Assembly (NCBI GenBank): GCA_040754495.1 | Contig: JBFMCO010000042.1 | Location: 1 to 47,274, forward strand | Length of the DNA: 47,274 nt | Direction of reading: 5' to 3' | From: Candidatus Micrarchaeota archaeon | Lineage (GTDB): Archaea > Micrarchaeota > Micrarchaeia > Anstonellales > Bilamarchaeaceae | In this document: positions 3,118-29,700 of the stretch, piece after piece | Layout of the letters: each line of letters starts with the position of its first letter | Position numbering within the stretch: position 1 is the first letter of the stretch | The notes under the pieces: generated by a model | The model's database searches: none | Seen by the model: the letters and a program-made list of their open reading frames with translations, nothing else | Told to the model about the DNA's origin: nothing | Position numbers and translations under genes: made by a program

Positions 3118-3459
3118 ATGGTCAGAGCCAATATCCCTTCGAAAATCACGCCTGGCGGCGGCGCGAAGCCGCCTGAGCACGACGAGTCGGACATAGACGA
3201 ATTGGAGAAGGTCGCCCTCGAGAGGGCGAACAAGGCGCTATCCGCCATAGAGAACGCCATCGCGGTGTGGGAGCAATCGGCTGAGAAGCCGGACGAGCTG
3301 CGGCCGAGGATAAACCGGCTCAAGGCGATACACGACGCCCTGGCCAACTGGGAGAAGAAGGTGCTGAAGAGCATGGGAAAACCGGACATGGCATCCAGGA
3401 TAGAGAACCTGCGGGAGTTCAGCGACATCTGCTTCACGTACTCCCGCGTCCATGGGTAG
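3118..3459 (+). CDS. small alpha-helical partner protein 1 (paralog of 26404-26742)
   Basis: 113 aa. About 34/76 identities to 26404-26742 over the core (W..EKPD.LR, HDAL..WE.K.L.SMG, R.E.LREF). Stop is 6 nt before the G1 ATG. Confidence 0.9.
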   Translation: MVRANIPSKITPGGGAKPPEHDESDIDELEKVALERANKALSAIENAIAVWEQSAEKPDELRPRINRLKAIHDALANWEKKVLKSMGKPDMASRIENLREFSDICFTYSRVHG

Positions 3460-3465
3460 TCGTAT

Positions 3466-6400
3466 ATGGCACAAACCCAGAGAGGCGGAGCGCCGGGAAG
3501 ACGCGTCGAGACGGCAGAGCAGGAAGTCCTCAGGGAGCTTGCGCTGCCGCTTCCGACCGTCAGGGCGCCGCCTCCGGACGTGCTCAGGCCGCTGCAGACA
3601 GCAATCAGCGCCGCGGAAGGGAGGGTTAACGACTTATTCAGGCTCGGGCCGGAAGTGGACCGGCGGGTCGGCGTTAGCCCGGACAGGGAAAGGAGGCGCG
3701 AGGGGGAGCAGGAGAGGGCGAGGGCAGAGGAGAGGGCTGCCGAAGTGCCGCGCGTCAAGGGCTATCTGGATGTCATAAGGGGGCAGCAGCTCGGGGGCCT
3801 CGAGCAGCATGCCGAGCGGATTTACCAGACGGTCACCGAAGCGGACAGGCTGATACGGGCGGGAAGGAGGGAGGAGGGCCTCAGGCTCTACGAAACCGTC
3901 CGCCCGCAGGTCGGGCGGCTGTACCAGCTGCTTCCGATTGCCAGGGACATCGCCACGTCGGGCCTGCCCGAGGAGCAGCAGCGGACGCTCATCGGCGGGG
4001 CGAATGCGGCCATGTATTTCTATTCGCAGGGGCAGGCCGCGCGGGGCGACATCATCATGCAGAACCTCGAGACCTTCTCGAGGCACAGGGACACTCTCAT
4101 GCGGCCCGAGGCCCGGCTCGCAAGGATGACGATAGTGGCGACCGTCGAGAACCTGTCCGACAGGAGAAGGAGCATCACCGAGGAGAACCTTGGGCGCGCG
4201 CAGAGGGACGCGACCCAGATGGAGACCACCCTCACCCAGGCAGAGAGCGAGAGGAGGGAGCTCGCGGCCCAGGCGTTCGCCCACCAGTCCGAATCGCTCT
4301 ACACGTTCTACGGCACGGCTTCCCCGGAGATGAGGCAGCGCATCGACCAGGCGAGGGAGTACCTGGACGGCCTCGCTACGAGGCTCCGCGCAGGCGAGAC
4401 GGTTACGGACGAGGAGCTGCGCAGGGGCGCGATGCTGACGCAGGCCATGCATCTTGGCATCGGCGTGCTGGACGGCATCGAGTCCACGACGGAAAAAAGG
4501 CAGGTGGAGAGCGTCTATCTGGCCGCGTTCGACGTCCTGCTCACTGGCGGGAATATCGACACCCACAGCTCGATAATGCTGGCCGCGCAGGACATCACCG
4601 GCCCGCGGGGAAACGCGGCGCTCCGCCGCTCCCTTTCCACGGCCGCGACTGCATACAGCACGGCGCTCCGCAGCCCGGATGCGACCGCCGACAGGAAGCA
4701 GGCTGCGGAAGGCGCGCTCATCGGCGTTTATGCAAGGCACGTTTCAGGGAGGCTCGGGACTGCATCGTCAAGCCTGACCGGGGACATGAGGACGAGGGCG
4801 GATGCTCTCGCGGCGCCGCTCACCGAGCACCCGGAGACCGCGACGCTCGACCAGCTCCGGTTCGCGAGGGCCGGGACCGAGGTGCTGGAGAGCAGAACGA
4901 GGCATTTCGGAAGGGCGTTCAACCCGTCAGCGCCCGTGCGCACCGGCGCCGACGCCATATACGGGCGCGCGCTCGATTCGCTCCAGAGCGGCGGCAGCGT
5001 GGACATCGCCATGGCGCAAAGCAGCCTCGCCGAGAGGTACGTCCAGACAGGGGACGAGACGAGGAGGACGAGGCTGGAGGGGCTCTCGGGACGCCTTGCG
5101 CAGAACCCGCGGGAGCTGAGCAGCGTCATGTTCTACATCGACGCGGATGCGCGTTCGCAGGAAATCAGGGACGCCCTGCCCTCGCTTCCTGCTGCGGCGA
5201 GGGCGCAGGGACAGCGGCTGCTGGAGGGCCTGGATGCCATGATGGCTACGATAGCCAGCGGGCAGCCGCTCGTCGATGACGGCAGGGTCCTCCAGGCGAA
5301 GACGGAAATGCTTGCAAGGATGGAGAGGGACGCGGGATTCTCCCAGCAGATAGAGCAGACCGCGAGGGTCCTCATGATGCAGACGCCCGGCATGACGAGG
5401 GACCAGGCGCTGACCGAGATAGCGAGGGCCCAGGCGACAGAGGCCGAGATGCGCAGGGGGGAGGAGATGCTCACCACGCTCTCGACCATGACCGACCTCG
5501 TGCGGTCCGCGCGCGGAAACCCGGCGAGGCAGGCAGAGATTGCGGAGATATTCTCGGTCGGCGTTGACGCGCTGCTTGCAAGGAACACGGCGAGGGCCGC
5601 CACCATACGGCAGACGGCTGCGCTTTATCCGCGCTTCGCGACCGACGCCGACCGGCGCTCGGTGCTCGCTGCGGTGCGCGGCCTCAGGGACGGCACGGTG
5701 CAGGAGGAGAATTTCGGCGCTTACATGCAGGTCCAGAGCCAGAGGGCCGAGTTCGAAAGCAGCATTACCGACCCGGCCCTGAAGAGGAACTTCCGCGCTT
5801 ACATGGACCTTGCAGCGCTTGCTGCGCTCCGCGGCGACAGGCTCGAGAGGGAATCCGTACTTGACCTGGCCGTCATGTACGCAAGGTGGGCCTCGGTTCC
5901 CGCGAACCAGGGGGGCGTCGCGCTCATGGAGGCGCGGAGCCGCGGGATGGAATTCGTGCAGCAGAGGCTGGGCGACTACCGGCGCAACCCGGACATACTT
6001 GCAGGAAGGAGGCTCATAGACGCCGGCCAGGCAAGGAGCTGGACGCCGCGCGCCGGGACGATTACCGCTGAGAATGCGCCGCTCACCGCAGCCATACTCG
6101 GCGAGGGGAGCATCAGCGAGGCCGTTGGAGGCGGGGACCGCGTCGCCGGCGTGAGCGCACTTACGGCCCTTCGCAGGGACACTTACACCCATCTTGCCGC
6201 GTCCGAGGACGCGGACTGGGAGAGGAGCCTCGCGCGGCTGGAAGGCCGCACGCCGGCGGAGCAGAGCGCGGTGGAAAGGAGGTGGACGCGTGAGGCAGCG
6301 CGGCTGCGCCGCGAGGCCGCGAGCGCGCGGGCGAGGGGCCAGGAGGCGCTCGCGGTGCATTACGAGCGCCAGGCCGAGCTGGTGGACCCGCAGTTCATGC

Positions 6401-9400
6401 ACGAGGCATTCACCGTCGCGCGCAGCGCATACGCTGAATACCGCACCGAAGAGAGGGCGGCAATCGCGTTCAGCGACGAGGCCGACAGGGCCAGGGACGC
6501 GGATATAACGAACGTGACGACGCTCGCGACGCGCACCCGGGAGATGATAGGGGAGATGCCCGAGGCCCAGCGGGCGGAGTACGAGGCCAGGCTGAGGCAG
6601 GCCGGGACCGACCAGGCGGCGCTGAGGACTCTGTACCTGGACGTGATGAGGGTCCGCTCGGAGCAGCTTATCAACGGCCTGCCAGAGGGCCTGCAGGCGA
6701 CTGCAAGGCAGAGGCTGCGGGATGCCGGAAGCGACGAGGCGGGCATGAGGAACGTTTATGTCTCGCTGCTGCGCACGCATGCCGGGATGCACGCGGCGAG
6801 GGGAGAGGAGCTTCGGACCGCGGCTATGAGGATACGCGACGACATGGCCTCCCTGGACAGGGGCGTGAGGCTGACCACGGTCCATCGCACGTCCGGCAGG
6901 TTCCAGCTCGCAGTCAGCATCCGGACCTCGATGGCAGTCGCGGGCGGCTACGACTGCGACTTCCTCGGGCGCCCCATCGAGAGGGAAGAAACCACGCCGG
7001 GCGGCGAGACGCGCAGGGTGAGGGTGCCGCTCACGAGGCCGAGGGCGGCCCAGCTCACCGCACAGGCGTCCGCGGCATCGCGCGTGGGCCGCGGCGCCGT
7101 GGACTTCCAGGTGGCCATAGAGAGGCGCCGCGACCGTGCAAACGCGGTGGAGAGGGCACAGCTCACGCAGGACATAGGCCGCTTCAAGACGCTGCTCACG
7201 ACCATGATAGACTCGCTCCCGGAAGGGAACCGGCAGCAGTACCGGGACCTCATGACGCAGGCAGGCGACGACCCGGCCATGCTCCAGGAGATATTCCGCC
7301 GCCTCGGCAACGAAGGAGTCAGGACCCAGGACGACCAGGGCCACGAGTATGCTGACATAGAGGACAGGGCCGGGGACGCCCGCAGGGCTATCGGCCTGCG
7401 CTACGCGGAGAGGTTCGGCGCGGCGGACGCGCTCTCGAGCAGCTCGCGGTCCGACTTCCGCGGCGGCGTGCTCCAGGCCCGCAACTGGCTGAGCGACCAG
7501 GCCGTAGCAAGGCTGTACAACAGCTCGACCGGGACGCAGATAATAGGCGTGGGTACCCTCGACCTGAGCTACACTTCGGCCGAAACCGGCCAGCCGGTTA
7601 CTGTGCAGGTAACGAACATCACGCCGAGCTCCGAACTCATAGACAACATGATACAAAAGCTTCCGCCTTCCTCCGAGAGGGAAGCGCTGAGGCAGAGGCT
7701 GCTGGCCATGCCGGCAGGGCCGGCCGGAAACGACCAGAGGCAGGCGCTGTTCAGTTCCCTCCTCGACAGGGAGGTGTACGACCCACGGCGGGCGCCCGGC
7801 ACCGGTGTCACGTTCAGGGCGGTCATCGAGAGGGGGGACAGTTTCTATTATCATGCCAGCGAGTACGACCAGCAGATTGCCGAGGCCAGGGCTCTCGGGC
7901 GCAGCGGCAGGGGAAGCGAGGCCCAGGCAGCGCTAGACCGCATCGAAGGGGACATGGGGCGCTCCGAAATCGCATCCCGCTCGGACGCGAGGGAGCTCGG
8001 GGCGCGGCACACCGCATGGGAGACGCGCAGGAGGGAGGAGGGGCTGCGGGGCAGGTACACCGAGGGCCTGCCAAACCAGGAGGAGCATCCCCGCAGCTAC
8101 GGGGAGGCGCAGGACCGCAACGATGCCGTCACGGGCGACCATGTGAGGCTGAGAGATGGCAGCAGGACGAGCCTGTTGGGGCTTTACGAGGGCAGCATGG
8201 AGCGCGGCGCTGCGGACATGGACAGGCTCGCCGACAGGCATGGAGGTGTCCGCGACACCATCCTCGCCGGAGGGCAGATGCTCCAGCCCACCGTGGAGGT
8301 GGCTGTAGCCTTGGCCGCTGCTCTCGCTGACAGCCCCCGCGACCATACGCTTGCCAACGGAAGGACGTATGCCCAGATGCTGAACGACCTCACCCTGCCG
8401 GGCTCCCCCCAGGAGCAGGCGCAGAGGGCCGCGGCGCTCTACCAGGCAATCATGGACAACCCGCAGGATTTCGCGGCGGCAGCTCGGATAATCAGGGAGG
8501 GCCATGACGACCGCGGATATACATATGTTTCCGGGCTGAGCAGTGACCTCGTCACCCAGCTCGACGTAACAGCAGACGAGATGGCGACTTACGGCAGGCA
8601 GCGCGAGAGGGAGAGGACCTGGGCGTTCGCCGATACCCACCTCAGGAGGGGGCAGAGCGAGCACAGGCTGGGGGACAGCTCTCATCGGTACAGGCGCGCG
8701 ACGAGCGAGAGGCACAGGGAGGACGAGGCGCGCCTTGGCTGGGCCCCGCACTACCAGACCGCGGAAACGCACTGGGAGAACGCAGCGCGCGAGTATGAGA
8801 TGGCCGCGACCATGCTCCTTGAGGGAAATGATACCCGGTTCACCGACATCGTGGTAAGGAACGAGCCGGTGACCGCGCCCATGTTCGAGTTCCGCGGCAG
8901 GGCTGCCCGCGAATGGCATTATGACGGGCCTGCTTACGTGACCGTGTATTCCGAGAACCGAGGGACCTTCGGGACTCTTGGAAGGCTCCAGCCGAGAGTG
9001 CTGAACATACCCGAGGAGATGTACAGCCTGACAAGGCGCGAGGCCAGGGAGATGGCCTCTTACACCGATGACGACATCCGGGGCGAGGCGAGGCAGAAAT
9101 ACGACCAGATGGGGATAAGCCGCGTCAGGCTGGAGCTGGCCACATACGGCATCGGCACAAGATGGCACGAAGAGGAGGGCGGAGGATACTGGGGCCTTTA
9201 CCGGACGAACATGACCCCCGAGGCGCAAAGGCTGGCGAACGAGGCCTTCCAGCACGGCGAGGCGCTCTGGGACCAGGTGTCTGGAAGGATTTTCGCGCAC
9301 TCCTCGGACTGGGGCGACGACTATGTCATGGGATTCCTGAATAGGACCGCAGACAGGTTCGCGTCCGACCTGAGCGCGATGGCGGCGGCCGAGGGCGAGA

Positions 9401-12400
9401 ATCTTGCAGGCGCAAGAGAGGATTTGCGGCTCTCCGTGCCATTCGAAGTCAGGAGCGGCCGGCTCTACGACCCTGATACAATCACGCGCTCCAACCTCTC
9501 GGACATGCAGTACTGGCAGGGAGTCCAGGAAACGGTGGAGATAGGCGGGAGGATAATCGTCGGCGGGCTGAGCATAGCCCTCGCGCCGGTCACGGGTGGA
9601 GCCTCGCTGGTCGGCGTCGTGCTGCTCGGAGCCGAGCAGGTGGGGCAGGGCTTCGAGATGCGCGCGCAGGAGGGAAGATGGACCGGCCGCGCGGTCTTCA
9701 CTGTCGTCATGGGCGGCGTGTCAATGGTATTGCCGTTCACGGTTTATCTTGCGGAAGCGAGCCAGGTGGCCCAGGCGGTGAACCTTGTCGCGCGCGGGGC
9801 GACCGAGGCCGAAATCGCGCTTGCCGGGGCGACCATGACCTCGAGGCTTGTCCAGGCCGGCGGCCTCTTATACATGGGCGTCGGCATGGGGGATTACCTC
9901 ATCAACCAGCTGCCGGGCGAAATCGACGCCGTGCAGCGCGGGGACAGGCTCTGGTGGCAGGCCGCGGCCGGCGGTCTCTTCCAGACAATCCAGCTTGCGC
10001 AGGTGGGCATCTCCACCTACCGGGGGGCCCAGGTGCAGAGGCAGGGCGGCATACCGGTCTACCGCTCCTGGGGACGGCAGGTGTTCGAGGCGCTCACGAT
10101 GGGCGAGGCGTTCTACACGCGCGAGCAGATGTCGGCCGCGCGCGCGTACCGGACGATGACGACGGAACTCGGCGCGCTTCCCGCCCCTGCGCGTGCATCA
10201 TACGAGGCTTACAGGACCGCACTCGGCGAGCGCGGAATACAGCTTCCCCCCGCGGACCAGGCGCGGCTTCTGACCGGATACCGCGAGGCCGTCGGCCGCG
10301 ACTCGACCATGACCTTCGAGCGCTACGTGCAGACGCCGGAGTACAGGGCAGGAGTGCATGAGCAGGCTTACAACGCTTTCGGCGAGGGAAGGGTTGGCGC
10401 TCATCAGCTCAACGACGAGGAATTCACGTACATGTGGGAGCGCTCGCACGGCTCGCGCGACTCGGCCCAGGCCGAGGCGAACGTTGCCACCGTGAGAGGG
10501 AACGAGCGGATGCAGGCCGGCGAGGCCGCCCTGCGCGACGTGTTCCAGGGGAACAGGACGCGCGCGAGCTTAGACCCGCACGAGCGTGCGTATGTCGAAT
10601 CAAGGCTGCAGGGCCGCCCGCCTACCGAGGCGCTGGCTGCTGCGGACGCCGCAGCCCCGCCGACCAGGGCCGGGGACATGCGCGCCCGCGGCGAGGAGGC
10701 CGCGAGGACGCGCGAGTTCACGCAGGCCAAGGATTTATACGAAGGCGAGATGATCCCCATAATCCCCGGGGGCGCCGAAGAGACGACGTACAGCCACCCG
10801 TCCGAGCCGGGCGTCCAGTATCCGCGCGACCAGATGCAGGCCGCGCGCGACATAGCCGCGACAGCGGAATTCATGATACGGAACGGGAACAGGCTTCCGC
10901 CAGGCATAGCCGCGGACAGCCCGGTTGCTGCACGGGCGCGCGAGCTTGCAGGCACTCCGGAATCGCCGACAGCGTTCAGGCAGTTTGCTGAGCGGCCGGC
11001 AGAGCAGGGGGGGCCGAACCGCGGCGCGCAGATGAGGCTCGCGCTCGAGCAGAGCGACAGGATGCCGCAGTTTGCAGAGAATGCAGTTGACCATGGCATA
11101 GCCTCGACGATGGAAGGGGCGGCAAGCGCGCGCGACCTGAATCAGGCAGAGAGCGGCTCAGCGACGGTCAGGGCGCTTTCGCTTGGGGAAGGATATGGCG
11201 AATTCACGCGCGGCACCCTCACAGAGCAGAGGGCGCGCGAGCTGGGCATAGGCCCGGATGAGATGGCTCTCTTCCAGAGGATGAGGGGCGAGAACGCGTC
11301 GCCGCGCCAGGCCGGCGCGGAGTTCGCAAGGAGGGCGGCTGCCGAGACCAGCGAGAGGGCGCTCGGCGATGCGGTGCATACGGAGTTCAACCAGAGGGCA
11401 GGAACCTTGGCCGAGCCGGCACGCGGCGCTGCGGCGGTAAGGGCCGAGAGGCTCACGGAAGCGTATCATGATTATAATGAGATTAACCTTTCCAATCTCG
11501 GCGCGCCCGAGAGGGCCGCGAGGATTAACGAGGTGCGGACTAGGCTCGGCCTCAGCGACGCCGAGCACGGGTTCCTGACGGCCCGGCTGGGGCTCGAGCG
11601 CGCCGAGGTCGGGCAGGACATCGCAAGGGCGGCCCTCGGGGAGATTCCGCTCGAGAGGCCTGCTGCAGCGCCGCGCGGCGAGGAGGGAAGGACCGGGCCG
11701 AGACCCGAGGAGGCCCCGCCCGTATCGCGGACAGCTGCGATGGAGGCCGAGGTCGGCAACATACGCGGGAGCGAGGCGCTCGAAGCCGGGCTGCGCGGCG
11801 CCTCCGCGGAGGTCGTACGCATAGCGCGCGTGCTCGAGGCGATGGCGCCCGGCGACACGGTGCTCAGCCAGCAGAGGCTGGGGGAGCTTGCAGCCGAGCA
11901 TCCGGAGTACGCGAGTCACATCGAGGCTTACAACAACGCGAGGCCTGAGGAAAGGCCTTTCCTGGCCCGGAGATATGCGGAGGAAATCGCGTTCGGGAGG
12001 AGCTCGCGGGCATTCGAATCCGTGGCCGGACAGCGCGTCACCGGACGGCAGGCGAGCGTCGAGATTGTCGAGGACGCAAGGCTGTTCCACAGGGCCCTGA
12101 ACGGCAGGGACATGACGCCGGCAGAGATGAGCCGCATAACCACCGAGCACTTTGACAGGTTTGAGCGGCTGAGGAGGGCGGGAATGGGCGAAGCCGATGC
12201 CATCCTCCAGGTCGGCCGCGAGATGAGGACCGAGCGCCTGATGAGCGAGCGCGGGATGAACCGCGACCAGGCGACAAGGTTCGTCAATGACGAGGCCGCG
12301 AGGCCGCACGACGTGCCGCTGCGGCCGGAGGAGGGCCTCGGCGAGCAGGACTTCAGGGCCATGCCGTCCGAATACAACACGAGGACCATCACGCTGCCCG

Positions 12401-15400
12401 ACGGCTCGACCACCACGCTAGCCGACGCGCAGAGGGCCAGGCTCATCCGCAGGATTGACAACACCGAGGACTCGGTCGGCTCCACGGCAGGCGTCTGGGT
12501 CGCAGAGATAATGGTGAACGGCCAGCCGAGGACCGTGGCCGTCAAGGTGTTCAAGGACCCGTACGTTCCTGGCGGACAGCAGAGGACGGCCCAGCACTGG
12601 GAGAACCTTTTTGAATTCGTCACGGGCCACCCGGCAAGGGCAGGCGAGCATGCGGAGATGGGCGAGGCCGGAAACCTCTCGGCAATTTCCGGCATGACGT
12701 TCAGGTCAGGCGACGGGAGGGAGCTTCCTGTCGGCCCCGGATTCTACGGCTTCGTGAACGTGGATGGCAACATCGCGGTCGCGATGGACCTGCTGCCGGG
12801 CATGTACATCGGAGACATGAGCCCGACGCAGATACGCGAGTTCGTCCGGCCTGACACTTACGCACAGATACAAAGAATCGGAGAGACGCTCCAGGCGAAC
12901 GGATACGGGATGCATGACTTCCAATTCATAGTCATGTTCCCGCCCGAGTCCGCGATACCGACCGGGCTTACCGGGGCCGCGCGCAGGCAGTTCATAGAGA
13001 ACTGGCGCACGACAATAAACGGCAGGGAGGTCCGCGCAGGGGACGTCGTGCTCATGGATGCCGGCGGGCTTTACCGCGCGGCAGACGAGCCTATGTCCAC
13101 GTTCAGCCCCATAAGGGAGGCGGAAAGGGCGCGCAGCACCGCGGACCAGGTGCTCGTCAACGACGCGCTTGCGAGGACAACCGCGACGGCAGCGGACGCG
13201 AACGCGCCGGGCAGGGCCCAGGCGCAGGCAGACCTGCAGGTCATGGAAGGGTTCATGAGGGAAGTCGAACCGATGGTGAACGCCAGGGACCCCATGGCCG
13301 AAGTTACGCGCCGCTACATGATAAAGAGCGACAGGGCGGACGCCGCTGCTGCAAGGCTCGAGCAGATTCGCGCGAGCGACCCGGCACGGGCCGAGGCAAT
13401 CGAAGGGGCATTCAGGAGATTCGAAAGGGAAGCAGGGCTGCCGGAAGGAAGCATGCTGCCGATGAGGGCTGAGGAAGCTGCCACCGTGCCGCGCCGCGCT
13501 GCGGTTGGCGCTGAAGAGACTACTGTAATAGAGCCCACGAGGCCGTCAAGGGCCCCGACGCCCCCGCCTGGCGAGGGGACGGTCCCGGGAAGGGGCAGGA
13601 GAGGGCCGCCGCCAACCGAAGAAAGGACTACCGCTCCGACAAGGAGGCAGCCTCCGCCAGAGGAAAGGACTGGCACTCCGACCAGGAGGGAGCAGCCGCC
13701 TGGCGAAGGGACAAGGCCGGAACGCAGGGGAGCGCCGGGCGAGAGGCCCGCGGAAGGACCTCCTGCGGCGGAGGTCACCGCTGCTCCGAGGTCGCTCCTT
13801 GACGACATCAGGGGCGGCGCGGGATTGCGCGATGCCATTGACAACCTGTTCGGAGTGGACTCCAACCTCGCAAGGAGGCTCGAGCGCAGGCTCGAGGTGC
13901 TTGAGCAGGACCCGATGTTCGCCGAGCGGTTCAGGGTGGCGACGCCGGAGGAGCGCGCGATAATCGTGGAGTCCCTGGCGAGCGGCATGTCGCCGGCCGA
14001 GGCGTTCCGGAGGATGGCAGCCGAAGGCGCCCCGAGGACAGCCGCGGAATTCACTGCATATGCGGACAGGCTCGCCGGAATGAGCGAGCCCGAGCGCCTC
14101 CTCAGGATACAGGACATAGCCAATTCTGACCCGAGGCTCGGGGAGGCCCTGCTCAGGATGAACCGCGAGACCAACCCGGCAAGAAGGGCGAGGCTCGCTA
14201 CAGAATGGGAAGGGGCGGTGCACGAGCGTGCGCGCGTGCAGGAGGCCCAGGAAGCAAGGGCCGCGCGGACGGCCGATGACCTCCGCACCCAGGAGCTGGA
14301 CATGGTGACGCGGGCCGCGCAGGCGAGGGGTCTTGATACGAGCATCATGACCGAGCTGTACTCGAACGGCGGCACCGAAGGCAGGATGGCCGTGCTCGAA
14401 GGGCTCGGCGTGGACATGTCCCGGTTCAATGCGGAGAGGACAAGGATAGAGGCCATGCCTCCGGGCGATGCCAGGAACACGGCGCAGCAGCGCCTCGACA
14501 CGATGGTGCATGGATTCTTCGAGCTCATGACAAGGGGCGGGCTCGAGGGGCACATAGCTGCCATGCCCGGATACGAGGGCGCGACTGTTACCGGCGTCGA
14601 ATTCCGCGGCGGCATGAGGGGCGTCTATGAGGTAACGCTTTCCAACGGGAGGAGGGTATTCGTAAAGAGCGAGGACGTCGCGCCGGCGCGGTTAGGGCGC
14701 GACCTTGCTGTGGCCGAGGGAATGTGGACATCCCGCATACACGAGGGATACTCATACGACACCGGCCTGACTTACCGCGACGGCACTCCCGTGAGGCAGG
14801 AGTTCGGCATACTCGAGGATATACACGACGTCCGGGGCACCCAGATAACGATAAGGCTGCCTGACGGCTCGACAGAGCAGGTGCGTGTCGTCGGAGTCTC
14901 GATGCTGAGGGACGAGGTGCTAAACGTGCCGCAGCCCCCGCCGCCGGACGCTTCTCCAGAGGTGGTGCGCGCATACGAGCAGAGGCTCGCGGCATTCCTC
15001 GCAGACCCGGTCGTGCAGGAGTTCTACAGGCTCTCCGGGAGCGAAGGGGGGAGGGACAGCATATTCCAGGCCTGGAGGGCGTACCAGGAGATGTCCAGGC
15101 GCGCGGTGCTCGGCGACAGGTTCGCGAGGAACACCGCTGCAGTCATCGTTGAGCGCGCAGACGGCAGCAGGGTTCTTACATTCCAGCCAATAGACATGGA
15201 CGCTGTCGGCTGGAGGGTCGGCTCGAGGCCGGACGGGACGCCGGGCTTCACCGGGCTGAGGACTGATTTCGCCGAGGCGAACGTAGACTTCCTCACCAAG
15301 TTCTCGAGCGCCACGGCGGCCGCGTCGGGCCACGGCCTTATCGGCGGCCGCGTGGACGGGGGGACTCTGCTTGGCAACATGTACAGCCCCACGGCAGAGC

Positions 15401-18400
15401 GCGGGGCCGCGATACCGCCAGACTCGCCCGCAACAAGGCAGAGAGTCGGCGAGATACTTGATGGCCATGACGGCAGGTACTTCGGCGCGGGCTTCGACAC
15501 GACATCCCCGGACATGCCGGCAGTCGGCGAATTCATATCACACGGCGGCAGCGACAGGCCGATAGGAAGGAGCGACGGCCGTGTCGTGCTGCATGCTGAT
15601 GACATGCGCGGCGTTACGGACGCAGCGGCGACGCCGGCCGAGCGCCAGGCGTTCGACCAGGCAGTGCGCGACGAGCTGACGCGCAGGTTTGGCGGAGGCG
15701 GGCGGCCGCCTGGAGGCGGAGGGGGCGAGCCACCGCCCGGTCCGCGAACGACGCCCGAGCGCAGGGGGGGAAGGCCTCCAGGCGAAGGGCAGCCGCCTGG
15801 CGAGAGGACTACCCCCGGAAGGCGCGGGGCGGCCCAACAGGAGCAGCGCGCTGAAGAGAGGACGATGACCGTCCGCGACAGCGACATAGTGGAGGAGAGG
15901 ACCGCTACAGGGGCAAGGCGCGGCCGGGCGGCGGAAGAGAGGACAATCCCTGTCACGACGGACATGATTGTGGAGGAGCGGACAGTCCCGAGGGCGCCGC
16001 CCGTTGAAGAGAGGACCACTCCGCAGAGAGGAGGAGCAGAGCAGCCGCAAGAAGCCACAGTCCCGCGGCCTGCAGAGGCGCAGCCTGCCGTGGCGCCCGC
16101 TCCGGTCACGCGGATGTCACCGGTGGACCTTGTCCAGCCTGACAACCTCGGCGCATTCGCAGGCAGGCTGAACGCAGGCGATGCTACGGCAGCCGCGGAC
16201 CTTGCCGCGATGCCGCCTCAGGTGCGCGAGCAGGTGGGCATTTTCCAGGAAAGGTATGCAGCCGCGGCAGGGAACGCACAGGAGCAGACGCGCATCGCAA
16301 CCGAATACGCGGGCAGGATTCTCGCAAGCAGCCTCGCATCGAGCCCCGAAACGCTCTGGCGGTTCGCGTCGAACTTCAGGTTCGGCCTTGAGAGCAGCCA
16401 GGTCACGCCGCAGGCAAGGGCCATGCTTGACAGCCTCCCGCCCGCAGTGCGCGACCTGGTGATTGAATTCGGCGGCAGGCTTTACAGAGAGTGGAGCCAC
16501 AGGGACGCCCTCGCGCCCGGATATGCCGACAGGATGACGCGCGCGGTCGATGCCGCGGCAGTCGCTGACATGTACGCGCTCCACACGCAGGGCCGCCCGC
16601 CAGCCAATCCGGCGGACAGGGCGGCGATGGAGTTCATCACCGCTGGCGGCACGAGGACGATAGACCCATCTACGCCGGCCGGAGCAAGGGAGATAGACGC
16701 GGCCGTGCAGTTCAGGAGGAGCGCCTCGCGGCTCGTCGAGAGGGACGGAGCCGCGGCGCTGGAGTCCGCGAGGACGCTCGGGGAGAGCGTCAGGACCGGC
16801 GCCAGGCCGGCCGATTTCCAGGGCGCGCTTGCGTACGATGCCGTGCAGGATTTGGCGCGGGCGAGCGCGCAGCAGGCCGGCAGGGCGGTTCCCGGCGCGC
16901 AGGACTACTTCAATGCGGCGGCGACATTCAGGCTTTTCGAGCAGGGCGGGCTTCCCGACACGGCCACGGTGAGGACTCCGCACTTTTCCGGAGGCAACGA
17001 AGCCCTGGAGCAGCACGGCACCGCGTATATAGACTGGGGAGGCCTGCAGGTCGAAGTCCACATTTTCCGGGACAGGGTGAACGTGTTCAGCGTGGAGCCC
17101 GCGGCCATCGGCGAGATGGGCTGGCCTACGAGCGGGATGAGGGAGGCGCTCGCCCGGTACGCGCAGAGGCGTCTTCGGGGGCCGCTCGAGCGCGCCTTCA
17201 GGGGGACGATGCGCCAGATTCCGAGGGAGACCGGAGGCGGGTACGACGTCTGGAGGCCGGTGATGGATTCCATCCAGGCCACAACGCTCGACCTGACGCA
17301 GGGGAGGCTCGCTACGGCACCGCCGGCCGTTGCAAGATACACGCCCGAGGAGATTGTGCGCGTTCACAGAACCGCTGATGTCGCCGCGAGGGGCGAGGCC
17401 GCGGCGGCGTTCCTTGAGATGTCCCCGCAGGACCAGCAGAGGACGCTCGGCCTGCTGCGCGAGAGGGCGAGGCCGCTTGAAGAAAGGGCGGCCGCGCTGG
17501 AGGCAGAAGCCAGGAGGCTCGAGGCCCAGGTCATGCCGGAATATAATAGTATACTTGAGAGGAAGGCAGCCGCGGAGGCCGAGGCAACGAATTATCAAGA
17601 GCAGGTGAGGGCGCTCGACCCGCAGATAAGGGCGGCAGAGCAGAGGGGAGACATGGCAGAGGTCTCCAGGCTGCGGGCCGAGAGGGGCAGGCTGGACGGC
17701 CTCGCGGATGAGAGAAGCACCGCGGCCAGGATGCTGGAGGGCGAGGCCGGGCGGCTGATGCGGCGCGCGAACGACCTGCGCGAGCAGGCGGGCGAGCTGC
17801 GCGCAATGGCCGGCTACTGGAACGAGCAGGGGATGTACTTCAGGGAGCTTGCAGGCCTCGGAGGAGAGATTGGCACTTACCTTTCACAGAGATACGGGGT
17901 GCCGCGGGAGGAGCTCGCGCGCGCATATTCCGCCCAGCCGACCACGGCGGAGGCGAGGCGGGCGCTTTATGACGCGCTCGGCATAAGGCTCGGCGAACTC
18001 CCGGACGCCGCGGTGAGGAGCGACGCCTACAGAAGTTTCACCAGCCTCGCTGATGACCCGTACATCGCAGGCATGATACTCACCGGGGACCTGCTTCGCA
18101 ATGTCGAGGGGATAGTGAGGCCGGACATAGACCCAACAAGCCTCCAGCCCGGAGACCGGGTCGTGGTGCGCGGAATAGACTTCCAGAACGGCCTCGTCGG
18201 GGCGTACCGGCTCACCATTGAAGTCGTTGACAGCCAGGGCAGGCCGCGCACCTTCAGGGACGTGAGCGGGAGGGAGCGCACCTCGATGACCCTCTTCGCC
18301 AAGAGGCAGGGCCTCAGCCCCGATGCCACGGGAAGCGAGGGCGGCAGGCTCACCGGAGCGCCCTCGCCGGACATACTTACAAGAGGCGCGGACGGAAGGG

Positions 18401-21400
18401 CGCTCGTCTATGTCTCGCCCGAAGGGCAGAGAATAGAGTACGGCCTCATGCGCGACATCCGGGACTTCCACGGCCAGATAGATGCCGGAAGGGCACTCAC
18501 CGACTCGCAGGGAAGGCCTGCCAGGGTGGATGTAAGCGTGGATGCCGCCGAAGACCTGTACTCCATAGTATTCTCCTCCGGCAACCCGAGGACGACCGAG
18601 GCGCGGGACCAGCTTTTCGGCGAGTTCCGCGACCATCCGGAGCAGTTCCTCGAGGCCCTCGGCTATGCACAGACAGGCTTCACTGCCGCTGGATTCTACG
18701 ACAGGCACGAAGGCAACGTGTGGGCGATGTGGCTGCGGATAAGGAACCAGCCGGCAGCCGAGGCTGCGCACATCGCGCACCAGCTCGAAAGCCAGGGCTA
18801 CCGCGTGAGGGACAACGGGGATGGCACATGGAGCTTCCTTCGCTTTGGCGCCATAGACTCGGACACGTTCGGCCAGTATCGGGCATTCAGCATGCCCGAC
18901 GGGCAGATTTCCCTCGCCCCGATGAGGGACCAGCTGGTGACGGACCTGCACAGGGTGTTCGTGCACCTGACATACGAAATGAACCAGGCCGAGATAGCCC
19001 GGGCGCACGCCGAAGGAAGGCCGCCAAGGCTTCGGACCGTGGAGGAAGTCACCACCATGGCCTTCGGCGAGAATATGGACGGCCCGTGGATGCGGGGCAT
19101 GAGGCGCTGGGTTTCGGAATTCGCCCCGGACACCCCTGCAGGGGCGCGCTTCAGGGCGGACATGCATTCCCTTTTTGACGGCTACAACGGACAGCGTTCA
19201 GGCATGGGCTTTGCGATGGAGGGGGCGCAGCTCGGCCGCTTCGAGGCGCAGGGCTATGAAGAGATACCATCGGCGCTCAACGGCATGCCGACCACCCACC
19301 TGGACGGCATAGACGGCCGCACGAGCTTCATGGCGAACGGGCGGATGGCGACCAACCCGAGCATAAGCGAGGCCGCAAGCCCGCGCGTCCGGGCCGCCCT
19401 GCCTGACGGACAGGACAGATATCTTGTGCGTATTGACGACATGGGCCGCTCAGAGCGCAGGCAGTTCCTGAGCAGCCTCGAAGCGAGCGGAGTGAGCACC
19501 GCGAGGCTGAGGACCTCGGCCGTCGGCGGAAGGGAATACATAGTCTTCTCAGACTCTGCGGCGATACCGCAGGCGATGTACGGAAGGACTGTCGCGGTGA
19601 GGCGCGATGGAGACCGGGTGTTCGTCAATAATTATGGCGCTCTGCTCACCGCTATTCCGGAGGGAAGGGCCGCGTACGTAGTGCCGCTTGCAGGCATGGG
19701 CAGAGTCGAGGCCCGCAGGCTCAGCAGCGCGCCCGGCGCCAGGGTTCTCGAGCTCAGCATCGGAGGCGAGCAGAGGTTCGTGGTGTTCGACAGCCCGCAG
19801 GCCGTGCCGGAGAGGCACAGGGACAGCGCCATGCAGGTCCGGAGAAGCGGGAGCACCATACTAGGAGATGCCAGGATGCGGGAGAGTATGGGCATAATCA
19901 ATACCAGGGACATCGGAGCAGCCCCGATGTTCGACGGCATGATGAACATGGGAGATGCCGGATGGACCGGGCTCTGGCAGGGAGTCAGGGACGGGGTGCT
20001 GAGGGCAGAGGCAGGCGCCAGGGCGGCTCCGGATGCCGGCTTCCTGCAGAGGAGAGTGCCGAACCCTGGCGACACGCAGGCGCTTCCTCCGGAATACGGA
20101 GGGCCCGGCCGGACGATTCCTGTTTCTGAAAGCGACCTCATCCCGCAGGGCAGCCCCCCGAGGCCGCCCCCTCAGCCGCCCGCAGGGGGCGGCGGGACCA
20201 GGAGGGGAGTCGCCCCGCCGGCAGAAGAGGGCCAACCCCAGCCGGCCAGGAGACAGCCCCCACCACCGCCGCAGCCGAGTGAAGGCAGGGGGACCGTGAG
20301 GATGGCTCCGCTCCCTCCTGCGGACCAGATGGCCATGCCCGGGCCGGCGCAGGTCCCGCGCGAGGGGGGAACACCTGGCGAACGCGCGGATGCGGCACAG
20401 ATGGCAGGACGGCTCATCGCCGGCGACCCGAACGCCCGGACGCAATTCACCGGGAGCTCCCAGGGAATGCAGGATGCCGTAGGCTTTGAGCTGGCGCAGC
20501 AGCTCAACCTGACAAGGCCGGGAGACATTGCCAATTTTGCAAGGGACGTCGCCCTCTACGAGCTCCACAGGACCGGGGAGAGACCCATCACCGACCCTGC
20601 CGTGCTTGCGCGCGTCGAGAGGAACGCAAGCCTGCACGCGCTCCTTCCCGAGAGGGTGAGGACGGCTGTGAGCGGCCTTGCCGGGAACAGCGCGTTCATA
20701 CTCAGCGCGAGGGGCACCGACAGGGCATTCGAAAGATATGTGGGCAACCGGAGGCTGGGCGGCGCGCTCGTAGGCGGGGCGCAGCGGGAGATTGCCGGGG
20801 CGGTCAATGCGCACTTTGCGGCCGGCCAGGGAGCTGGGCCCAGGATTCAGATTCCCCAGCAGGAGCTTGCACGCATCTCCGCAGACCTTGATGCCGCAGT
20901 GAGGACGGGCCAGCCGACGGGCTCTGTTGTGGCGATAACCGCATTCGCCGAGCAGGGCGTCTATCGGGTGATAATCGAGCGCGCGGACGGGACCCGCACG
21001 CCTTTCATATACAGGGAGCGCCCCTTCAGGCAGGAAGCTTTCGGCTCGGAGCTTTATGCCGCGGCCGGGCAGCAGGCACCGCATTTCATACGCCTGGGCG
21101 AAGGGCCCGACGCGAGGGCGCTGCAGGAGGTCGTCGGCGAGATGGACTTCCGCACGGCGCTGGCGCAGGGCAACCTGACCGAAGCAGAGAGGCAGTCGCT
21201 ATTCCGCGAGGCCGGGAGGCTCGGCATGATTGATTATGCGCTCGGCCTGCCTGATTCCCATGCTGGGAATTATGTCGTCGTGAGGGGGGAGGGAGGCACC
21301 CTCAGCCTCATGAGGATTGATTTCGAGAATGCCGGCATCGGGTGGGGGAGGGGCATACGCCCGGATGGCAGCGTAGGGAACAGGGACCACGTGATTTTCT

Positions 21401-21909: not shown

Positions 21910-23205
21910 CCAGGAGTTCTCGTCGCCTGCGCTGATGACGTCGGAGTCGCCCATCACGACCCGGACGTGGTCCGCATCCTTGTTCTTGGAGGCGAGCCGC
22001 AGGGCGCTCCTGATCGCGTCCTCGAACTTCTTCCAGTCCACTTTCGAATCGGTGTATGTATTCACTACCACTTCTTCCACCGCGATGCGCCTTTCCTTGT
22101 CGATGAGGATGGCGACCATCGAGTTGCCGTCCCTCCTGATTCCGAAAACGTAGTCCGCCCAGCTTATGCGGTCACTCTCGCCGGTGAGGATGAAGTGGGG
22201 GTCTATGTGCCTCGCTGAATACGATTTGGTGGGGACGACGAAATAGGCATAATCCGCCGCCTCCTCCACCACGCCTTCGGCCGGGATGTCGAGGAGCTTC
22301 GATATCGCCGGGGGTATGCTTGAGAGCCTCTGCGGAAGCTTGTCGCTACTGACACGCTTTACGTCGTCCGGCATGCTGATACTAGCGCCCTGCGGCTTTA
22401 AATCCTTTTCATCGCAGCCGTAGTAGCGGCAGGCGGATGAAACGGTGTCGCTGAGAAGGTCCTTCGAGTTCCGCAGCTCTATGACTGCCATTCCCCCATA
22501 GCCAATGACATCGAGCGAGACTGCGAAGCGCTCCCAGTCCACCATCCCCGAGCCGATGGGGATGTGCTTGACTGACCTGCCATCCGCCACCGCGCGGTCG
22601 GAAAGATGCAGGTGCTTCAGCCTCGGGAGGGCCGCCTCCATGTGCCCCACCACGAGCCCGGTGTATGTCCCGCCCTGCATTCCCGGCAGGATGGCCGGAT
22701 GGGTGGTGTCGATGCAGAAGCCGAGGTTGGGCGGCGAGTCCTCTATCAGGCTCCTGAACGCTTTAATCGTCTCGGGCGAGTGCAGGACGGACGATTCGCT
22801 CGTCATGTTCTCCACTGCAAGGACGAGGCCGGGCGGTATCCTCTCGGCAATCCGCCGCAGCGTGTCCGCAAGGGCCGCCATCTGCCCGTTGCCGGGGTGG
22901 ATGACGGCAACCTTCGGCTCGAGTATATCGTGGACATCGCGGCAGAAATTCGCCACCCGGGAGACGGTTACCTTGTCGGCGGTCGTCAGATTGAAGCCGC
23001 GGAGATGGACCGAGTAGGTGCTGATGCCGGCCTCGAGCAGCATGAGGCGCGAGGAGGCGAGCCTTGCGCGCTCGTCGCGGTCAAGGACCTGCTTAAGGCC
23101 GTAAAGGTCCAGCTCTACTGCGGAGAAAAACCTGCCAAATTCCTTGATGCGCGAGGTTTCGGTGAACTTGATGCTGGGAATGAGCAGTTTTCGGGGTTCG
23201 TGCAT
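21886..23205 (-). CDS. sugar-phosphate isomerase/AP endonuclease 2 (EndoIV-like) TIM-barrel protein fused to a C-terminal family-X domain
   Basis: Metal-ligand motifs SVH, IHPG, AVEN, IDTTH, HLHLSD, KHIPIGSG and VIE are present. The track ORF starts at 23319, but ATG 23205 (MHEPRK) lies ~25 nt below TATA 23229-23238. The last ~160 aa match family X. Confidence 0.85.
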   Translation of the reverse strand: MHEPRKLLIPSIKFTETSRIKEFGRFFSAVELDLYGLKQVLDRDERARLASSRLMLLEAGISTYSVHLRGFNLTTADKVTVSRVANFCRDVHDILEPKVAVIHPGNGQMAALADTLRRIAERIPPGLVLAVENMTSESSVLHSPETIKAFRSLIEDSPPNLGFCIDTTHPAILPGMQGGTYTGLVVGHMEAALPRLKHLHLSDRAVADGRSVKHIPIGSGMVDWERFAVSLDVIGYGGMAVIELRNSKDLLSDTVSSACRYYGCDEKDLKPQGASISMPDDVKRVSSDKLPQRLSSIPPAISKLLDIPAEGVVEEAADYAYFVVPTKSYSARHIDPHFILTGESDRISWADYVFGIRRDGNSMVAILIDKERRIAVEEVVVNTYTDSKVDWKKFEDAIRSALRLASKNKDADHVRVVMGDSDVISAGDENSWSGGSPSS

Positions 23206-23228
23206 ATCCTTGTTTATGGCAGGAAGCG

Positions 23229-23238
23229 TATATAAATA
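23229..23238 (-). promoter_or_regulatory. TATA-like box for the TIM-barrel gene
   Basis: tatttatata on the minus strand with an A-rich upstream stretch, ~25 nt before ATG 23205. Confidence 0.5.
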
Positions 23239-23272
23239 GTGTGGTTTTTTGTTAAAAAAATTGTAAGTATGT

Positions 23273-25350: not shown

Positions 25351-25354
25351 ATAA

Positions 25355-26403: not shown

Positions 26404-26742
26404 ATGGATTCGCCCGACTCGAGGCGGGATAATGGCCCGGCGCAGGAGCCTGTTCCGGAGTTCGAACTGGTCACGGAGAATAACATAGAACGGACTGAGA
26501 GGGACATACTGGTCAGGGTGAACAGGAGCATCTCGAGCTTGGAGTCCGCCCTGGCTGGCTGGGATGCCGCAAAAGAAAAGCCCGATGATTTGCGGGAGGA
26601 GTACGAGAGGTCCAGGCTCCTCCATGACGCGCTCGTGGACTGGGAAACGAAGATGCTCCGGTCCATGGGCGAGAGGATGGGTTTTTTCGAGAGGGTCGAG
26701 AGGCTCAGGGAATTCATCAGAATAGTTGAAAGATACGCATAG
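26404..26742 (+). CDS. small alpha-helical partner protein 2 (paralog of 3118-3459)
   Basis: 112 aa, ~45% identical core with 3118-3459. Stop is 8 nt before the G2 start. Confidence 0.9.
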   Translation: MDSPDSRRDNGPAQEPVPEFELVTENNIERTERDILVRVNRSISSLESALAGWDAAKEKPDDLREEYERSRLLHDALVDWETKMLRSMGERMGFFERVERLREFIRIVERYA

Positions 26743-26750
26743 GCGAGAAT

Positions 26751-29700
26751 TTGGGTCCACCAGCCCAGAAGGAAACCCCCCAAGCCGGGGCTGCCGAAGC
26801 CCTCAGGACTGATGCTGCCGCCCTGCAGCCGAGGCTGCCCTCGCCTTTCCAGGCCGGCCAGCCGTCCCAGGTCGACCTCAACCGGGGCGCGGAGCAGATA
26901 CGGAAAACCAGCGGCTTCCTGAAAAACACCTCGCTCGGACTAAGCAGGGCCCTGCCGCCCGCCACGACAGGAGACATCAAGGAATTGGAGAACAGGGGCA
27001 ACGCGGCATTCGGGGGGCATCCTGAGGCGCGGACATTCCTCCAGAAGTTAGCGGGTTACAGGGAGCAGGCGGACGCCGCGAGCCGCGAGGGAAGGTACGA
27101 CGCCGAATCCATGGGGAAAGCGCAGCGTCTTGGCTCGGCTCTGAACGCCATTCTGGACGCGAACAACAGGACCGGCAGCGCAGCCCAGCAGGCAGCCGAG
27201 AGAGGCGACGAGACCTCCAGGCACGCCGCCACGGAGATGAAGATACGCCTTCCCCGCCTCTTCAGGATTTTGTCCGGGGAGACGCCGGAGAGCATCGAGA
27301 GGGCGCACGCAGCAGCCGACGTGACGATACATGCCGTGGAGAACCGCGATATCTACCGCCACGAGGGCAACAAGGGCCTTCTCTCAAGGGTCCTTCAGGT
27401 CCAGGAGCGGCTCACCAACGACCAGGTGCAGATGTCCCATGACGACATCCAGAGGGATATGAACGAGGTCTCCGGAAATTTCTATACTGCCGCGGTGAGG
27501 GCTCTTGGTCCGGCAGGCGGGGCGGCAGCGGCCATGATGGCCCAGGTCCAGTCCATGATGGCGTTCCAGACGGTCCGCGACATGATGAGGGGCGAGGCGG
27601 ACAAGCTGGAGAAGCAGCTGAAGGAGCTCCTCAAGGTCCTCGGCGACCCTGAGAAGACTGACGAGGAGAAGAAGAAGGCGCTCGCGGAGGCGGAGGAGGC
27701 GGTCCAGAAATTCGTCCTCAAGGCCCTTGACGCGCTGCTCAAGGAAATCGGAGCGCCGCCGGAGCTTGCCTCGGCGATAGGGAAGGCGGCGAAGTTCATA
27801 GGCACCGCGAGGGCTGGAATGCTCCTGCAGGCCGGCATGATGTACGTCCGGTACAAGGAGGCGTTCGACGAGAAGAAAGAGCTCCTTGACAAGCTGGTGC
27901 AGAACGTGAAGCAGCTGGCCGACGAGAAATTCAAGCCCGCTGCAGAGAAGATGAAGGAGATCGTAGGGGCCCTGCAGGACATCCACAGGGAGGCCGCCCA
28001 GCTCCACCAGAAGATAATGCAGGCGCGCATGCGGATGGCTGCCGCGCTCGGCCAGGCGCTCGGCGAGCTGAGGAAGATGGCTGAGAAGGAGGCCAGCAGG
28101 CCCCTCCGCGAGGCGATGGAAAAGCTCGGCGAATCCCTGCGTGACATGCTCCGCAGGCTGCAGAATCCGAAGACCGCGAAGGAGGTAGACGGGAATAAAT
28201 TCAAAAACGCGCTTGAGACCTTCGGATGGCTCAAGGCGATGACGAACCAGCTCGGCAAGATGCCATCCGACAAGCCCGAGCAGAAGAAGGACAAGGAGAA
28301 CGCCGCCCAGCTAGTCGCAAACGCAGTGAAATCGTCCATCAGGGACGCGCGGTCGGAGATGTCGCGGATGCTACAGTTCGTGGCAGGGGACTACCTGAAG
28401 ACTGCGGACACCGCTTACAAGGCCGCCCTTTTCTCGCTCGGGAACGCGCTCAACGAGGGAAAGAAGACGCTCGATGAGGCGAAGAAGGAAGTCGCTGGCA
28501 GGCTGCTGCAGGAAGGCAACGCCCTGCTTTCAGGGCTTGCAAAGCTCGGCGACGCCAGGCTAATCGAGCTTGTGAAAGGGCTTCTCCCCGGCAAGGAGAA
28601 GCCCGAGCAGGAAACCATGGAGAGCATATTCAAGGCCCGGCAGGCCATCGACATGGGCTCGTTCGCCCTCAAGGAGGTCGCAGGGCAGAAGGCGGAGCAC
28701 GTGAAGACGACCGCGCTCGGCTTCGTCAAGGGCGCGCTCGGCCTCCTTGGCAAGGGGAACTTCGCCGACGCCTCTGCGCTTTATGCGACCGCCCAGCAGT
28801 ACATAAGCTCGCCCGAGACACGGAATGAGATTGACAAGAAGCTGACCGGGCTCCGCAAAGCCGTCCAGGAATTCGAGAAAAGCCCAGCGGCTATGCGGAA
28901 CACGATAGACATAGGAGGCGCGCTGAAAGAGTCGCTCCGCAAGCTGCACCTCGATGCGAAGTCGCTCGGCGAACGGCTCTCCTCAGGCGAGCTCGTCTCT
29001 CCCGAGGAAGTGGCCGCAGTCGAGAAGAGGTTCAAGTTCGCGGAGCAGGCAATAGCAAGCCTCAGGGCGGGCGCGGAGGGCGCGGTGAGGAAGGCGGCAG
29101 GCGAGATTTTCGCGCGCGGCCTGGACGCGCTAGCGTCCGGCAATCCGGCCGTTGCTGCCCTCCATAGGTTCCTCGGCGCTGAATGCATGAAGGGCAACGC
29201 CGCCTACAGGAAGCAGCTCGAACAATGGAGCGCGGGCGTGGCAAGCGGCGAGATGAAGATGGAGGACGCCGTGAAGCAGGCCGCATCGCGCCTTGCAGGC
29301 GAGCTGGGAAAGATTCCCGCATGGAAGAGCCTTACCGAATCCGGCATCACGGATTCCATCAAGGCGCTGATTCAGAGGGGCAGCGCGCCCGATGCCACGC
29401 TCGCGGACTGCGAGAACATGCGCAGCGCCCTCGACCTTGCCGGGGAGTATCGCGCGGGCATAAGGAAGGCGACGGACAAGGCCGGGCTTGCGAAAGTGTT
29501 CGCCAGGGCATTCGCCGGCCTGGCGAGGGGCTTGTCCCCGGAATACGTCGATGCCCAGGCAAAGCTCGCACGCTCTTATATGGACCCGCCGGCCTCGGCG
29601 TTCGTGAAGGCGGAGGCGAGGCGCGCCCAGATTGAAGCCGTTTCCGCCAGGATGGAGGACGTCGGCCTTCTGAATGCCGTGCATGGCTTATTCACCAGGG

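Follow-up and report, generated by a model that had tools for sequence, protein, structure and literature searches.

Do the glycine-rich hydrophobic segments in the middle of two giant archaeal proteins enter a membrane and, if so, whose? The question is raised by contig JBFMCO010000042.1 of the Candidatus Micrarchaeota archaeon assembly GCA_040754495.1 (family Bilamarchaeaceae), analysed here over positions 1–47,274 (the window, 47,274 nucleotides), in which two giant genes, G1 (3466..21909, forward strand; 6147 amino acids (aa)) and G2 (26751..46709, forward strand; 6652 aa, TTG start), each encode such segments. An earlier note on this DNA had taken them for translocator-like hairpins, akin to the SctE translocators of type III secretion, that carry the C-terminal part of each giant into a target cell. 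The means by which Micrarchaeota and other DPANN archaea influence their hosts are poorly understood, and we know of no effector-delivery or membrane-targeting device in archaea. Here, a succession of charge-free helices in front of a variable C-terminal region makes a membrane-inserting role the most reasonable reading of the segments. Our interpretation, which is tentative and held at slightly less than even confidence, is that they form the core of a family-specific helical module that would insert into a lipid bilayer as a hairpin anchor.

The hairpin module and its four helices

The hydrophobic, glycine-rich segments are indeed present as first described: each of the six peptides quoted in the earlier note occurs once, within G1 residues 2017–2185 and G2 residues 2347–2544, and beyond the three segments listed there a fourth charge-free helix (h4) follows in both giants. 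In G1 they lie in an all-helical module of residues 1930–2330 (9253..10455; this and all further features are on the forward strand unless stated otherwise). Module positions are numbered as the G1 residue number minus 1929, and conservation refers to an alignment of 26 module sequences (A3). The first helix, h1 (residues 2030–2055, 9553..9630; module positions 101–126), is a 26-aa charge-free, glycine-rich stretch with the central motif LAPVTGGASL (consensus GVxLAPxTGGxS) and is predicted to form a helix-turn-helix tip. It is followed by loop 1 (20 aa, 9631..9690), which is acidic on the family average and holds the near-invariant Gly141 (at least 90% conserved) in a GxWT turn, and by h2 (residues 2076–2096, 9691..9753; positions 147–167), a 21-aa hydrophobic helix with the consensus FxxxMGxAxMVLPxAG. 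Behind a loop 2 of variable length come h3 (residues 2128–2146, 9847..9903; positions 197–216 in the alignment), a Gly/Met-rich charge-free helix in which Gly204 and Gly211 are kept in 25 of the 26 sequences, and h4 (residues 2162–2183, 9949..10014; positions 234–254 in the alignment), a charge-free amphipathic helix with a conserved ladder of glutamines at positions 243, 247 and 250. The 96% conservation of the two glycines of h3 fits tight helix packing. Polar positions within h3 and h4 are kept as Gln or His and not as charged residues, and the C-flank of the module carries a conserved basic motif, GxPxYRSRxRQ.

The G2 module (residues 2260–2690, 33528..34820) is without the P-TGG motif, and its h1 (residues 2360–2381, 33828–33893), h2 (2405–2422, 33963–34016), h3 (2489–2506, 34215–34268) and h4 (2520–2541, 34308–34373) correspond column by column to those of G1 in the alignment. 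The claim that the segments have the same spacing in both giants holds for the first pair, whose starts lie 46 aa apart in G1 and 45 aa apart in G2, but not behind it, where G2 has an insertion of about 32 aa in loop 2, between h2 and h3.

Hydrophobicity, measured by a 19-aa Kyte–Doolittle scan (KD19), singles out the same places. The only G1 windows of at least 1.6 are at residues 2030–2055 and 2077–2095, with values of 1.96 for h1 and 1.91 for h2 (1.16 for h3); the only such window of G2 is at residues 2360–2378, its four helices reaching 1.62, 1.56, 0.93 and 1.47. Shuffled versions of G1 often contain a single peak of 1.96 (261 of 1000) and rarely two such peaks within 120 aa (2 of 1000). 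Set against the helix peaks of 145 multi-pass-like open reading frames (ORFs) of the same genome, h1 and h2 of G1 stand at the 54th and 50th percentiles and the G2 segments (1.62, 1.56 and 1.47) at the 20th–29th, and the Gly content of h1 in G1 and G2 (0.23–0.31) lies above the 90th percentile of real membrane helices. Of the 26 family members, 19 have a KD19 of at least 1.6 in h1 or h2, and h3 or h4 reaches 1.6 once only (h4 of the copy G157_c, 1.60). These values describe one credible membrane hairpin (h1–h2) and two semi-polar charge-free helices. For G1 we rejected the idea that the helices lie just below the threshold of the signal recognition particle (SRP), as they match the median membrane helix of the same genome.

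The depletion of charge extends over all four helices. They are nearly charge-free in the 26 homologs (mean Lys + Arg 0.2–0.9 and Asp + Glu 0.5–0.9 per helix), against about 26–31% charged residues elsewhere in the giants. The hydrophobic segments contain the longest charge-free runs of each giant, and the three longest G1 runs free of Asp, Glu, Lys and Arg (27, 24 and 21 aa) all fall inside residues 2030–2185. Loop 1 has family means of 1.8 Lys + Arg and 3.3 Asp + Glu, and the mean net charges of the 26 sequences are +1.1 for the N-flank, −1.5 for loop 1, 0.2 for loop 2, −0.6 for loop 3 and +3.3 for the C-flank; under the positive-inside rule, these flank charges fit a placement of both arms of the giant on the cis (cytoplasmic) side of a membrane, with N and C termini inside (N-in/C-in).

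Structure prediction with AlphaFold2 on A3 gave an all-helical model (predicted local distance difference test (pLDDT) 81.3, predicted template modelling score (pTM) 0.55) with helices at module positions 76–109, 117–140, 145–180, 195–229 and 234–263 and with a long helical hairpin that has h1 at its tip. The hairpin core modelled alone behaved in the same way (pLDDT 76.4), and in both models the helix is broken at positions 110–116, that is, at APVTGG.

Distribution of the module and its place in the giants

Aligned directly by BLASTP, the G1 and G2 regions match weakly (23% over 194 aa, E 0.035); a profile that was made from G1-type modules and left out G2 matches G2 residues 2269–2537 with 52 bits (E 2e-18), and the G2 module scores 356 bits after its inclusion in the profile. 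The G2-type clade is separated with a value of 100 in the Shimodaira–Hasegawa-like approximate likelihood ratio test (SH-aLRT). By these sequence comparisons, the G1 and G2 regions are homologous and belong to deeply separated clades.

An exhaustive phmmer search with G1 residues 1930–2330 against 1.84 billion representative proteins returned 18 matches including G1, all of them giants (1,615–7,279 aa). Of 301 genomes sampled from the phylum, 7, all of one family, contain the module by single-sequence search, and a profile search found it in 20 of the 99 genomes of that family (4 of 23 genera), always in open frames of 1,262–7,702 aa and in up to five copies per 1.4-Mb genome. No stand-alone or mid-size forms were seen when the profile A4 was run against proteins of 102–473 and 474–2,000 aa, and a word-based homolog search with the G1 module region among candidates of 3,380–10,758 aa returned only G1 itself. 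Compared with Pfam, PHROGs and the Protein Data Bank (PDB), the module matched no family (PDB rows were at chance level, for example sorbitol dehydrogenase and LacI), and the 26 modules compared with Pfam, PHROGs and NCBIfam gave nothing significant beyond short matches to MakE and MakA, taken up below, and weak Ssp4 and XopX rows. In the literature on giant proteins of Micrarchaeota and DPANN archaea we found no description of the module family, only the unrelated SPEARE-type proteins of Nanohaloarchaeota. The module thus appears to be an all-helical family of ~400 aa, defined here, for which no published description was found.

Three clades of the module tend to share one genome: the G2 type, which lacks P-TGG, a clade whose h1 is weakly hydrophobic, and the G1 type, which is strongly hydrophobic. 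Examples are copies a, b and c of genome G157 and the copies on contigs C27, C33 and C28 of genome G307; the window's own genome (G000) has G1, of clade III, G2, of clade I, and, on contig C57, a third copy that is unplaced. This co-occurrence is apparently an old duplication kept in parallel.

The surroundings of the module were examined in 20 module-bearing giants of other genomes, over the 12 kb upstream of it. The open frame runs 1,820–2,690 aa upstream of the module in 18 of the 20, and a homolog of a small helper gene ends at the giant's start, likewise in 18 of the 20 (two-helper profile; E 4e-14 to 4e-40). Two short forms, with 869 aa (L053, G311:C8) and 567 aa (L054, G313:C16) upstream of the module, are without a helper within 1.5 kb. 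In the window, the helper gene (113 aa, 3118..3459), which matched no family in Pfam, terminates just before the start of G1, and its paralog (112 aa, 26404..26742) precedes G2. None of the N-termini of these giants looks like a signal peptide. The N-terminal 1,929 aa of G1 align with 17 of 18 relatives (23–100% coverage), whereas its C-terminal 3,817 aa align with them patchily (4–59% coverage); the rear part of G1 shares an 83% identical block with G2, and across the family the length of the region behind the module varies between about 440 and about 4,970 aa. With a conserved front and a mosaic rear, the module is therefore the joint between them, and a layout of conserved front and polymorphic rear is that of polymorphic toxins (PMC3482391). 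Searches of G1 and G2 in halves found no Pfam family, and neither front nor rear halves matched PDB sequences other than in chance-level rows.

The giants also differ in composition from their surroundings (62–68% G+C, against 47–60% in the flanking and intervening genes). G1 has 0.3% Lys, 12% Arg and 0.02% Cys and G2 has 6.6% Lys, a split in Lys that is found family-wide: P0004, P0005, P0007, P0008, P0010 and P0011 are Lys-poor (0.1–1.4%) and the remainder have 3.7–9.0%, while all giants of the family are nearly without Cys. Directly after G1, a 477-aa ORF on the reverse strand (21886–23319) encodes a xylose-isomerase-like TIM barrel (AP_endonuc_2, E 1e-19, residues 58–285); two further reverse-strand ORFs (23273–23878 and 23888–24502) matched no family in Pfam, and YbaK-like and RtcA genes lie between the giants at 24883–26317. 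RtcA occurs near module-bearing giants in at least four other genomes (G157:C2, G305:C3, G050:C5 and G311:C8); the neighbourhood is thus conserved, and it looks chromosomal rather than mobile.

Proposed membrane insertion and its alternatives

In the reading that we prefer, the hydrophobic pair, h1 bent at P-x-T-G-G and h2, joined by the conserved acidic 20-aa loop, would enter the bilayer as a hairpin, and h3 and h4, charge-free and Gly/Gln-rich, would pack against it. The module would then be the joint of a polymorphic effector-like giant, between a conserved helical front of 1,800–2,700 aa with its helper gene and a swappable, putatively enzymatic rear. Both arms would lie on the same (cytoplasmic) side, so that the putative enzyme modules of the rear would be held at the inner face of the membrane. 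By analogy with the tongues of ClyA-type toxins, we slightly favour insertion after synthesis, with a hairpin that is hidden at first and then switches into the inserted form. It may possibly occur in a host membrane, after transfer through cell–cell contact, rather than only co-translationally in the membrane of the archaeon itself. What tilts us slightly to insertion after transfer is the resemblance of the layout to that of effectors, together with the helper gene and the tongue-like motif, whereas the full-strength hydrophobicity of G1 and the charge pattern keep an anchor in the archaeon's own membrane alive.

The tongue motif in question is that of MakE. In MakE, residues 202–224 form a hydrophobic beta-tongue that is hidden in the soluble form and, in the extended form, stands at the tip of alpha3/alpha4 and enters one membrane leaflet (PMC8617504). 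The hairpin tip modelled by AlphaFold2 would have the geometry of such extended, membrane-entering ClyA-family toxins. The NCBIfam model of MakE (NF049873) is matched by 4 of the 26 members (best E 6e-06, then 1e-04) and that of MakA (NF049871) by 2, and the MakE matches always place the h1 tip at profile positions ~201–230. In phmmer, the member from genome G313 aligns to MakE (6w08, 6tao) residues 198–233 with about 22 identities in 36 positions; the tip motif is the best MakE match in six-frame scans of the whole G313 and G157 genomes; and the MakE fragment, set against the family profile, reaches 13.5 bits, with none of 5000 composition-preserving shuffles above 8.3. G313 combines a short N-terminal region with the strongest MakE-like tip motif of the family. 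The MakE model also gives weak multi-stretch matches (E 0.014–7) in ORFs of 590–750 aa of four genomes (G000:C2:11218–11871, reverse strand; G313:C15; G157:C3; G316:C2), which are either ClyA-like helical proteins or coiled-coil noise, as control genomes also match (12 of 14).

A number of results weigh against this preferred reading. Foldseek, which the earlier note had proposed to run against translocators and pore-forming toxins, and VIA-align recovered only generic helical bundles and hairpins for the whole module and for the core (best Z 7.4 and 8.2); colicin, Bcl-2, diphtheria T, ClyA-family and translocator chains are absent among the fold-search rows listed, except for YaxB at a Foldseek E of 5.9, which is no proof of absence. 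The MakE match is short (~30 aa) and scores 21–26 bits (best 25.7) against a family cut-off of 360, a scan with the MakE model finds no match in G1 or G2 themselves, and the family profile run against the PDB does not recover MakE, with unrelated LacI chains scoring 15 bits. Nor was there a full-length match above the cut-off to any of the ClyA-family models (MakA/B/E, AhlB/C, Nhe, Hbl). Since the match is short, below the cut-off and absent from G1 and G2, we treat MakE as a functional analogy, common descent being possible but unproven. The hydrophobicity, too, is uneven: the G2 peaks (1.62 and 1.56) are within chance (946 of 1000 shuffles, and 89 of 1000 for the pair), so that the G2 signal rests on homology, h3 and h4 are too polar for classical membrane helices, and members of clade II have a weak h1 (mean KD19 1.25). 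Lastly, we know of no route by which archaea could export a protein of 650 kDa.

The alternative that survives best, which we consider unlikely without being far-fetched, is a resident anchor. SRP/Sec or YidC would insert h1–h2, with or without h3–h4, co-translationally in the archaeon's own membrane, the protein would never leave the cell, and its putative kinase-like domains would work or be stored at the producer's inner membrane face, perhaps at the site of host contact. Because h1 and h2 of G1 match the organism's median membrane helix, they should be recognised as membrane segments. The positive-inside charges likewise fit an N-in/C-in topology, and no export machine or secretion signal is evident within the 47-kb window. 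The window is also without genes of an injectisome, a type IV secretion system (T4SS) or class II (tetratricopeptide repeat, TPR) chaperones, although no search for injectisome families was made in the genome as a whole. A resident anchor sits less well, however, with the polymorphic C-terminal region, the several diverged paralogs per small genome and the dedicated helper, which are typical of delivered effectors and toxins, with the marginal hydrophobicity of many relatives, and with the likeness of the tip motif to a segment that is known to pass from a soluble into an inserted form.

Distinctly less probable is that no membrane is involved and that the giants have here a long, soluble bundle of helices that serves as a structural joint, with the apolar Gly-rich helices packed tightly in its core. 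Such a bundle would suit the chance-level peaks of G2, the three members (P0014, P0017 and P0018) that have no KD19 peak of 1.4 or more anywhere in the module, the regular bundle of long helices that AlphaFold2 gives at pLDDT 70–80, and the finding that the best-conserved residues are glycines, as is typical of close helix packing. A depletion of charge over four helices, kept in 26 diverged homologs, would nevertheless be unusual for it, h1 and h2 of G1 equal real membrane helices in hydrophobicity, and the flank charges are asymmetric as in membrane proteins. We regard the soluble bundle as disfavoured by the family-wide charge depletion; it stays more possible for the weakly hydrophobic members.

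The earlier note's own model, in which the C-terminal ~3,500–4,000 aa are carried across a target membrane through a translocation pore made by the hairpins, in the manner of AB-toxin translocation domains or type III translocators, is in our view improbable. The module does directly precede the variable region, it is Gly-rich, its Gln ladder could line a channel, its tip motif is common to a component of a pore-forming toxin, and three co-occurring clades of differing hydrophobicity recall the tripartite ClyA-type toxins. Homology to SctE, however, found no support: no SseC or IpaB/SipB model matched any of the 26 modules at E ≤ 1, SseC (PF04888) was not found in the genome at E ≤ 0.01, and tblastn with G1 residues 2017–2114 against the 72,556 plasmids of PLSDB, which should include the virulence plasmids of Shigella and Yersinia, gave five chance hits, to a fimbrial protein or unannotated. 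PDB sequence searches gave nothing significant for colicin, Bcl-2 or diphtheria T domains (the sole such row was a diphtheria toxin chain, E 8.9), in keeping with the fold searches. The charge pattern favours both arms on one side, there is no precedent for the transport of about 400 kDa of folded enzyme domains by two to four short helices, and nothing gives positive evidence of a self-translocating pore for such a cargo. What survives of the membrane-inserting module first proposed is the homology of the two regions and the charge-free helices kept across 26 relatives; the SctE kinship is not supported. Just as improbable is that the module is an archaeal relative of the ClyA-type tongue, placed in giant effectors, whose three clades (the strongly hydrophobic one, the weakly hydrophobic Gly-rich one and the one in which only h1 is named as weakly hydrophobic) cooperate like tripartite A/B/C toxins, opening or anchoring in a host membrane and so delivering kinase- and cyclase-like cargo, which, if true, would be the first effector-translocation device described in archaea.

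The choice among these readings matters for what the giants do. If the hairpin inserts as we prefer to think, the putative kinase-like cargo would work at a membrane face; if it does not, the family would be a soluble scaffold and the effector reading would be weaker. In either case the module gives a conserved, testable ~400-aa handle on how these archaea act on hosts and a marker with which to find such giants, a family that occupies several per cent of these small genomes, in metagenomes.

Comparison with known systems

The SctE translocators (SipB/IpaB/YopB/PopB; SseC, PF04888) share with the module only a general idea: a helical protein carries a hydrophobic hairpin and is accompanied by a small gene for a chaperone. 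Among the DPANN archaea, the SPEARE and giant surface proteins of Nanohaloarchaeota (4,000–9,400 aa) are proposed to act on the host, and combine a signal peptide with a huge ectodomain rich in adhesins, a single membrane helix close to one end and a VirB4-like ATPase (PMC6642349, PMC10266531). G1 and G2 have no sequence relation to them and, unlike them, are without a signal peptide or a Pfam-detectable domain, adhesins included, and have their hairpin in the centre.

Closer in layout are the pre-toxin domains of bacterial polymorphic toxins (PT-TG, PF14449; DUF637), which occupy the same position, between a conserved N-terminal and a polymorphic C-terminal part (Zhang et al. 2012, PMC3482391). 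A likeness to PT-TG is not seen at the level of sequence models: PF14449 gave no match at E ≤ 1 in the 26 modules and none at E ≤ 10 in six-frame scans of five genomes, with a positive control in B. subtilis. The nearest named look-alikes of the hairpin core in a language-model comparison are PT-TG (0.85–0.88), DUF637, LXG and TNT clusters, all below 0.9 and to be read as leads only. PT-TG, moreover, has 68 aa against about 400 aa for the module, and the giants, unlike pre-toxin proteins, have no trafficking domain of secretion types V, VI or VII (T5/T6/T7).

Effectors with transmembrane domains that are delivered by type III secretion systems (T3SS) and T4SS (Krampen et al. 2018, PMC6110835) resemble the module in having a hydrophobic helix pair in an otherwise hydrophilic protein and a small partner gene adjacent. 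In such effectors the hydrophobic pair must be kept out of the producer's membrane (PMC6110835), and their intermediate hydrophobicity is matched by many members of the family, as in G2 (20th–29th percentile), unlike G1 (50th–54th). These effectors are bacterial, whereas the module is archaeal and has no sequence relation to them, and its helper is only a candidate chaperone.

MakE and MakA of Vibrio cholerae differ from the module in setting and in overall fold: MakE is a secreted toxin of ~350 aa, whereas the module is embedded in archaeal proteins of 2,700–7,700 aa, and the five-helix tail and head of the ClyA family were not recovered for it in fold searches. The likeness is confined to the tip. 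MakE residues 198–233 and several Micrarchaeota members share the pattern GVVLAPxTxGGSL...G.GVS, and the modelled module, like MakE, has a charge-free stretch of 20–30 aa that bends at a Pro/Gly turn and forms the tip of two long antiparallel helices.

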